Assembly: GCF_003334335.1 (NCBI RefSeq)
Contig: NZ_QOWQ01000145.1
Reading direction: 5' to 3' (one strand)
Length of the DNA stretch: 848 nucleotides
Source: Escherichia coli
GTDB taxonomy: Bacteria; Pseudomonadota; Gammaproteobacteria; Enterobacterales; Enterobacteriaceae
Shown here: in pieces, positions 1-848 of the stretch
How positions within the stretch are numbered: the stretch's first letter is position 1
Layout: the number at the start of each line of letters is the position of its first letter
Position numbers and translations under genes: made by a program
The notes under the pieces: model-generated
Databases searched by the model: none
Seen by the model: the letters and a program-made list of their open reading frames with translations, nothing else
Told to the model about the DNA's origin: nothing

Positions 1-848
1 CTTTTCGCGCCGGTGTGTATTCCGGCTCCACCTGTCTGGCCAGTTGCTCCACCGTCAGCCCGCACTGCGCAAGCCACGCCCGGCTTTCACTGCTCACGCG
101 GTCTGCCCGGATTTCTTCCTCCAGCCTGTCCAGCAGCCGCACCAGTTCAGCCGGGAACACCACGCCGTGGCCGTTCTCACTCCCTTCCTGCTGGAGCGTC
201 TCTGCCAGGCTGCGCCGCTGCGCTTTTTCCCGCTCGCCGTTCTCTGTCTCGACCCGGATGAGCGGCGTGAAGCTTCCCGGCTCGTATACCGTCTGGATAC
301 GTGTGGTGTCAGTCTGCACCGTCGTCAGCCTGTCTCCGTCCCAGCCATACCACGTCACCTCCGGTTTACGCGACAGCGACATCCACCCCGTCAGGTCACG
401 CTCCCGCCGCCAGACCCGTTTTGCCATTCGCCGTCCCAGCGGGTCGTAGAGGTAGCGGCTCTCGACCAGTGGCTCGCCATGCTGTATCCGCGTGTAGAAC
501 ACCAGGCGGTGCTGGCTGTCGTAGTGGTAGTGGTGGGTCCGCTCGTCGTCCGTCCGTATCACACCCGCCGGGATGCGGTCCGTCTTCTCCGTCAGCCTGC
601 CGTATTCATCGTGGCGGTAGACATAGTGCGCATCCTCCGCGATGCGGTTATCCGGCCACACTGTGAGTGTACTGTCCGGGTGCAGCTCCGGGTCCGGCAG
701 CCGGTTGCCCGCCGGGTCCGTGGCATACGGGATGCGGATGTCCAGGTCTGGTGCGAGGGTGCGCACACTCTCCAGCCTGCCCGTGGCGCTGTAGCCGTAT
801 TCCCGCGTCTGTCGCGGGCCGCTGATGCGCACCAGGTCGCCGTTGTCA
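1..848 (-). CDS. rhs: Rhs-family YD-repeat core protein, internal fragment (partial at both ends; enterobacterial RhsA/B/C-type core; the variable C-terminal toxin domain is not in the window)
   Basis: The reverse complement read from + coordinate 847 gives 282 sense codons with no stop, ending at + coordinate 2. The window therefore sits entirely inside a longer ORF. The translation contains YD-repeat motifs: [10 protein letters not shown] (residues 16-25), [14 protein letters not shown] (75-88), [12 protein letters not shown] (107-118), [13 protein letters not shown] (131-143) and [10 protein letters not shown] (166-175). The 3' part ([97 protein letters not shown]) matches my recollection of the E. 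coli Rhs core shortly upstream of the core-terminating PxxxxDPxGL motif. Family assignment is from memory, not a search; 'rhs' is a family-level symbol and the paralog (rhsA/B/C/D-like) is unresolved. Confidence 0.88.

Follow-up and report, generated by a model that had tools for sequence, protein, structure and literature searches.

Degenerate YD repeats encoded in an internal fragment of Escherichia coli rhsD: predicted hairpins near the C-terminal end of an Rhs shell

The window analyzed here is an 848-nucleotide stretch of Escherichia coli DNA (contig NZ_QOWQ01000145.1 of assembly GCF_003334335.1), and it lies inside the rhsD gene. All 848 bases show 100% nucleotide identity to K-12-type rhsD, as annotated in many complete E. 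coli genomes, K-12 derivatives among them. The minus-strand frame from nucleotide (nt) 847 down to nt 2 is open over 282 codons, and all other frames are interrupted by stop codons. The open frame, the sequence identity, and a match to the family model NF041261 define an internal fragment of the rhsD coding sequence at 2..847 on the minus strand, with both ends open. The encoded part was mapped residue by residue to positions 872-1153 of the 1426-residue E. coli K-12 RhsD (WP_000014739.1, NCBIfam NF041261 'RHS element core protein'), from which it does not differ; the window is the same gene. NF041261 scored the fragment at 623.7 bits, with residues 1-282 collinear with model positions 875-1156, and the full RhsD of an identical locus at 2787.7 bits over 1-1258, where the curated equivalog cut-off is 2000. 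A reading of the raw sequence, made without any tools (the original prediction), had proposed that the minus strand encodes five clustered, diverged YD repeats and that each would give a single beta-hairpin in the shell of an Rhs protein.

All five YD-type peptides were found on the minus strand. Four of them (motifs 2-5) lie exactly where they had been placed, while motif 1 is shifted by one codon (773-802, not 770-799). In the numbering of the fragment (aa), motif 1 occupies aa 16-25 (nt 773-802, turn SATGR); it was weakly matched by Pfam RHS_repeat and scored 7.0 bits with a hidden Markov model (HMM) of our own. Motif 2 (aa 75-88, nt 584-625, turn DEYGR) and motif 3 (aa 107-118, nt 494-529, turn DSQHR, with His in place of the usual Gly) were detected by our HMM and by hhalign, and only below significance by the Pfam profile. 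Motif 4 (aa 131-143, nt 419-457, turn DPLGR) has unusually long strands and was detected by our HMM (3.5 bits) and by hhalign. Motif 5 (aa 166-175, nt 323-352) has a tight two-residue turn and coincides with the best TIGR01643 stretch and with a conserved GWDGDRL sequence. In RhsD numbering, motifs 1-5 correspond to residues 887-896, 946-959, 978-989, 1002-1014, and 1037-1046.

Each of these five motifs is real, but the count is incomplete, because two more motifs are present. A degenerate sixth motif is located between motifs 1 and 2 (aa 41-50, nt 698-727, minus strand). Its DPAGNRLP sequence is 70-99% conserved among 59 homologues, and hhalign aligned it in register with YxYDxxGRL (probability 27.5%, score 14.4). 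In the predicted structure described below, this region is mainly coil with isolated bridges, and its predicted local distance difference test (pLDDT) value is 77-89. The other motif is split by the right edge of the window, so that only its second half, DNGDLVRI (aa 1-8, 824..847, minus strand), is included. The full RhsD sequence gives the complete repeat as RDYGWS followed by DNGDLVRI (RhsD 865-878). Its family consensus is RxYxYDxxGQL, and the model has a strand at aa 5-9. The region of aa 1-34, which contains this repeat and motif 1, matched YD repeats in hhalign with a probability of 96.4%.

The irregular spacing noted earlier was confirmed, with motif starts 59, 32, 24, and 35 residues apart; the regular RhsD repeats at residues 579-716 have a period of 20-21 residues. 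The spacing is irregular because a decayed repeat (aa 41-50 and the segment up to WPDNRI) sits between motifs 1 and 2, because a further repeat is cut off at the window edge, because a lineage-variable loop (aa 91-102, occupied in only 30-50% of the homologues) is inserted, and because the strands around motif 4 are longer (10-11 residues in the model). When the two missed motifs are included, the turn-to-turn spacing is 19-36 residues. Counting the decayed repeats and the loop insertions thus largely removes the apparent irregularity.

The sequence evidence comes mainly from an HMM and a family alignment. Loose YD regular expressions gave 3-4 matches against 0.02-0.04 expected from 5000 composition-preserving shuffles. 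However, they were composed after the sequence had been viewed and are a weak test, which was superseded by an HMM trained outside the window. This HMM was built from twelve Pfam-delimited repeats in RhsD residues 320-756. It matched the fragment at aa 11-25, 80-116 (14.2 bits), 129-139, and 172-179, with a total of 21.2 bits, and the highest score among 1000 composition-preserving shuffles was 6.8 bits. The family alignment contains 59 homologues that are 34-93% identical to RhsD 760-1260, and the motif residues form conserved columns in it down to approximately 35% identity. The family consensus sequences of motifs 1-4 are YxYDxxGRL, YxYRYDxxGNLxEK, HxYxYDxxHRL, and RYxYDPLGRRxxK. The Y/D/R/R residues of motif 4 are invariant across the 59 homologues, and GWDGDRL of motif 5 is conserved to 90% or more. 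Applied to the 59 homologues, our HMM called a repeat at the positions aligned with motifs 1-3 in approximately 80% of them, with motif 4 in approximately 20%, and with motif 5 in 0%.

Family sub-alignments were also compared with the N-terminal repeats of RhsD by hhalign. The probabilities were 96.4% for the motif 1 region, 87.5% for motif 2, 95.4% for motif 3, and 88.9% for motif 4. Two helical control segments gave at most 0.1%, and the TVYEPGSF hairpin gave 0.2%. On this comparison, motifs 1-4 are genuine YD repeats. Motif 5 is a predicted hairpin in the structural model and a marginal YD repeat by sequence. With the public profiles, RhsD 301-1426 gave ten Pfam RHS_repeat matches with an independent E-value (i-E) of 0.001 or lower, nine of which lie in 320-756, upstream of the window. 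TIGR01643 (YD_repeat_2x) scored the full RhsD at 158 bits with 9 stretches and the fragment at 17.2 bits, where the curated cut-off is 15.8. The best stretch in the fragment, aa 164-188, lies over motif 5, and no single stretch was significant.

We predicted the structure of RhsD 760-1260 (501 residues) by AlphaFold2 using the 59-sequence alignment. The model has a mean pLDDT of 87.1 and a predicted template modeling score of 0.82, and each 10-residue block covering a motif has a mean pLDDT of at least 87. As had been expected from the sequence, beta-hairpin strands are predicted at all five motifs. Motifs 1-4 each form a strand, a five-residue turn (SATGR, DEYGR, DSQHR, and DPLGR), and a second strand, while motif 5 has a two-residue turn between its strands. 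The lengths of strand, turn, and strand assigned by DSSP are 4, 5, and 1 residues within motif 1; 5, 5, and 4 within motif 2; 3, 5, and 4 within motif 3; 4, 5, and 4 within motif 4; and 5, 2, and 3 within motif 5. Over aa 1-202 of the window, the model is 54% strand and 0% helix. A Foldseek search against the PDB returned Tse5 (8cp6_B) as the top match, with an E-value of 2.9e-32, a query TM-score (TMq) of 0.67, and 32% identity. It was followed by RhsA (7q97_A, 7e-28), Tse15 (8uxt), the Advenella and S. bongori Rhs proteins (8qja), RhsP, and Tre23-Rhs, and then by Tc BC shells and teneurins.

The window is an internal part of rhsD, and its five motifs are almost certainly degenerate YD repeats in the last third of the Rhs core, predicted to form hairpins near the C-terminal closure of the shell. 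The original prediction of diverged repeats that form one hairpin each and exist at the protein level only is supported by the identity of the gene, by the HMM and hhalign comparisons, and by the AlphaFold2 model with its Foldseek matches. The YD repeats of E. coli RhsD are an already known feature, and the prediction was correct and ordinary; a reading of raw sequence without tools had recognized YD repeats in a well-known gene of E. coli.

The domain content of the full protein places these hairpins in a larger architecture. RhsD contains a DUF6531 N-terminal plug (46-123, E-value 8.4e-19) and a PF03527 'RHS protein' segment (1155-1190, E-value 1.4e-15), which begins two residues past the end of the window. 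It also contains a TIGR03696 match (1181-1258, scoring 82 bits where the cut-off is 32.5), a DPxGL protease motif outside the window (YITQDPMGL and IDPMGLLQ), and a DUF4329 domain (PF14220, 1292-1411, E-value 2.6e-36). Judged from these domain matches, RhsD has a complete Rhs toxin architecture with both plugs, a YD shell, a DUF4329 domain, and a candidate immunity gene downstream.

In each repeat, the aromatic-x-aromatic residues would close one beta-strand, D-x-x-G-R would make the tight turn, and the next hydrophobic residue would open the return strand. Hairpins stacked side by side would give one long antiparallel sheet that spirals into a closed shell, or cocoon, and those of the window would make up the stretch of shell wall running up to the C-terminal protease plug. 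The shell would enclose the toxin domain at the C terminus, of the DUF4329 type in RhsD, until delivery, and the aspartyl-protease plug (PF03527/TIGR03696, ending in DPxGL) would cut the toxin free inside the shell. For RhsD, we infer encapsulation, autoproteolysis, and delivery from relatives that have been solved or tested. The barrel of Tse5 consists of 40 beta-hairpins with the consensus YDXXGRLV and 'significant sequence variability' (PMC10684867). In that structure, DXXGR forms the turn, and the Tyr points into the cavity and is often swapped for His, Arg, Trp, or Phe (PMC10684867). The C-terminal plug of Tse5 is an aspartyl protease (PMC10684867). A study of the S. bongori and Advenella Rhs proteins likewise describes the YD motif as marking the point where a strand gives way to a sharp turn.

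Several points weigh against this reading. A scan with RHS/YD profiles had been suggested for the motifs, and its outcome is mixed: the public profiles are weak repeat by repeat, while hhalign supports motifs 1-4 and, weakly, motif 5. The i-E values of Pfam RHS_repeat (PF05593) in the fragment were 0.028 (aa 1-29, motif 1), 0.98 (aa 76-90, motif 2), and 7.8 (aa 106-116, motif 3). Nothing was called by this profile at motifs 4 and 5 in scans of the fragment and of RhsD 301-1426, and scanning the longer segment instead of the 282-residue fragment gave no better Pfam calls inside the window. Neither Pfam RHS_repeat nor TIGR01643 gave a significant per-domain E-value for an individual repeat of the window. 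For motif 5, the hhalign probability was only 4.9%, barely above background; the alignment is in register with a one-residue gap, the turn being one residue shorter. The structural support is a prediction for a 501-residue piece of the shell, made by a method whose training data included solved shells of the Rhs, Tc, and teneurin types, and a sequence search of the PDB found no experimental structure of RhsD. A type VI secretion system (T6SS) is not known from E. coli K-12. Together with a PAAR motif that is below threshold in RhsD (E-values 0.11 and 1.1), this makes the delivery of RhsD uncertain. The profile results also bear on other proteins, since PF05593 and TIGR01643 under-call degenerate repeats toward the C-terminal end of an Rhs shell, and hairpin numbers counted from these profiles are therefore too low.

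The sub-threshold scores of the public profiles for each repeat in the window, and the fact that the strict pattern Y.YD..GR[LIV] is matched by none of the five motifs, could suggest that a GC-rich open frame matches a loose consensus by chance and that the motifs mean nothing structurally. We regard the probability of this as negligible. The HMM score of 21.2 bits is far from the maximum of 6.8 bits among the 1000 shuffles, the motif residues are conserved across homologues down to approximately 35% identity, the hhalign probabilities of 88-96% for four motifs stand against at most 0.1% for the helical controls, and the model has a hairpin at every motif. The shuffle scores, the family conservation, and the hhalign results refute a chance match. 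An older view of the Rhs core takes the YD repeats as surface repeats of a cell-envelope protein that bind ligands or carbohydrates, and not as a shell wall; Jackson et al. (2009) still wrote of a YD-repeat domain that is 'associated with carbohydrate binding' (PMC2935791). This is very improbable for RhsD. The top structural matches of the model are closed Rhs shells in which the repeats form the wall, structural papers on Tse5 (PMC10684867) and the S. bongori Rhs protein show the repeats encapsulating, and RhsD has the DUF6531 plug and the C-terminal protease plug of a complete shell architecture.

The DNA itself could also be what matters, if the window were a dispersed, GC-rich, and near-identical part of the rhs core that serves as a substrate for homologous recombination (a 'rearrangement hot spot') and the peptide motifs were incidental. 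The rhs genes were named for recombination between near-identical stretches of rhsA and rhsB (PMC3150448). Matches to the window were found in 3823 of 5426 complete E. coli genomes, at 14,075 places, 15 of them plasmid-borne, with a median of 3 and a maximum of 9 per genome. These multiple matches reflect paralogous rhs cores, and the window is a genome-scale dispersed repeat. Over the window and positions 5700-9300 of the locus L001, the GC content is 65% in the window and 60-69% in the rest of the rhs core, as opposed to 32-50% in the immunity gene, the toxin tip, and the flanking regions. However, recombination complements the protein-level explanation and does not replace it, and the reading frame is open. 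Conservation of the motifs extends to an amino-acid identity of 35-45%, a range in which the DNA is too dissimilar for homologous recombination, and this conservation in distant homologues refutes recombination as the sole explanation. There is also no DNA repeat structure within the window. The earlier statement that no extended nucleotide-level tandem repeat is present was borne out by Tandem Repeats Finder, which gave 0 rows for the window at a minimum score of 30; the direct repeats are two-copy families of 12-18 nt only. The pairs 328-345/423-440 (WDGDRL/LGRRMA) and 443-458/518-533 (RYLYD/HYHYD) correspond to shared motif codons. An explanation at the DNA level alone is thus extremely improbable, and shell-forming YD repeats remain our interpretation of the motifs.

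Among known shells, Tse5 from Pseudomonas aeruginosa (PDB 8cp6, cryo-electron microscopy) is the best PDB sequence match of the full RhsD (E-value 7.3e-122). The fragment aligns with it motif for motif, aa 63-202 corresponding to Tse5 864-983 (E-value 1e-09). Motif 4 aligns with RYRYDALSRRIAK of Tse5, and motif 5 aligns with FGWDGDR. The two proteins share WxxNR...YRxDxxGNL, RYxYDxLxRR, GWDGDR, TVxEPGxFxPL, the DUF6531 plug, the aspartyl-protease plug, and variable YD hairpins. Their toxins differ: that of Tse5 is pore-forming, whereas RhsD has a DUF4329 domain. The T6SS Rhs shells of Pseudomonas protegens RhsA (7q97), Tse15 (8uxt/8uy4), S. bongori and Advenella Rhs (8qja-d), RhsP (8h8a), and Tre23-Rhs (7pq5) have the same plugged cocoon of YD hairpins and C-terminal autoproteolysis at 18-27% identity to the model. 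However, their N-terminal delivery domains and toxins are unlike those of RhsD. The YD beta-shell fold is also shared by the TcB/TcC (BC) shells of Tc toxins (4igl and 4o9x) and by metazoan teneurins (6fb3 and others), with Foldseek E-values from 1e-13 to 1e-17, but the identity is only 9-15%. The 'RHS core' segment of TcC matches RhsD 1195-1258. Tc toxins build their shell from two proteins and have different plugs, and in teneurins a toxin-like domain is located outside the shell.

The remaining features of the fragment lie outside the five motifs. At 641-727 on the minus strand (aa 41-69), the decayed YD motif is followed by a conserved irregular segment ending in WPDNRI (aa 64-69). WPDNRI and the decayed-motif stretch are among the best conserved parts of the family, yet they are modeled mostly as irregular structure and not as a hairpin. 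The WxxNR sequence is conserved in Tse5 as well as in RhsD. The last hairpin of the shell (aa 186-200, nt 248..292, minus strand) is conserved but is not a YD repeat; DSSP assigned strands of 3 and 6 residues on either side of a six-residue turn, and the hhalign probability was 0.2%. Y300 and P307 of this hairpin (model numbering) are invariant in the family alignment, and it aligns with TVHEPGGFVPLLRLE of Tse5 and with a 14-residue stretch of the S. bongori Rhs protein.

Outside the motif cluster, the model contains a predicted five-helix insertion (aa 203-270, RhsD 1074-1141, nt 38..241, minus strand) that separates the last hairpin of the shell from the PF03527 segment; DSSP assigned helices to it at a pLDDT of 73-95. 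From TVYEPGSF to LYHCDHRG, RhsD has approximately 98 residues, whereas Tse5 has approximately 50 from TVHEPGGF, which starts at residue 967, to FFHTDHLG, the aligned region of which ends by residue 1048. Relative to RhsD, Tse5 (8cp6) is approximately 45 residues shorter over the insertion stretch, and S. bongori Rhs (8qjd) has only approximately 8 residues there. Sequence searches of the PDB found no solved Rhs structure spanning the helical insertion, which is a loose end with no counterpart of similar size in the alignable solved shells of Tse5 and S. bongori Rhs. It is present in nearly all of the 58 aligned homologues, a set that was chosen with a query containing the insertion. A regular-expression search for the YEPGSF and HxDHxG anchors gave distances of 58-121 residues, measurable in only 21 of 150 representative homologues and too incomplete for a map of the insertion's distribution. 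The segment ending in WPDNRI and the five-helix insertion might together be a specialized module of enterobacterial RhsA-D-type cores and more than just decayed repeats, although we consider this unlikely. If it were so, the module might touch the enclosed toxin, act as a gate for the C-terminal closure, or bind a partner.

Other potential features of the window were also considered. Plus-strand open reading frames (50-144 residues, window 13-825) were rejected as genes because they are antisense to a fully open, conserved frame of 65% GC. The encoded peptides have a high content of Ala, Arg, Pro, and Ser, as is typical of shadow reading frames of a GC-rich coding strand, and the frames were judged on this basis without further search. 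No Rfam family matched either strand at an E-value of 1 or lower, and scans of the window for sigma-70 promoters and intrinsic terminators found no sites.

At the locus L001, the gene order is ybbP, rhsD (1426 residues), ybbC, an orphan rhs fragment, and small open reading frames. The AT-rich C-terminal tip of RhsD has a GC content of 32-37%. Published rhs genes consist of a G+C-rich core of approximately 1200 residues and an A+T-rich variable extension (PMC2935791), and the GC content of the window relative to the tip and flanks matches this compositional signature. The region downstream of rhsD (L001 3591-5140) contains ybbC of the YbbC/YhhH family, an 'RHS repeat-associated core domain' pseudogene truncated at its 5' end, and small open reading frames annotated as hypothetical. 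The ybbC gene, directly downstream of rhsD, is the candidate immunity gene. A layout of orphan toxin/immunity cassettes is known for rhs loci, and the region downstream of rhsD fits it (PMC3150448).

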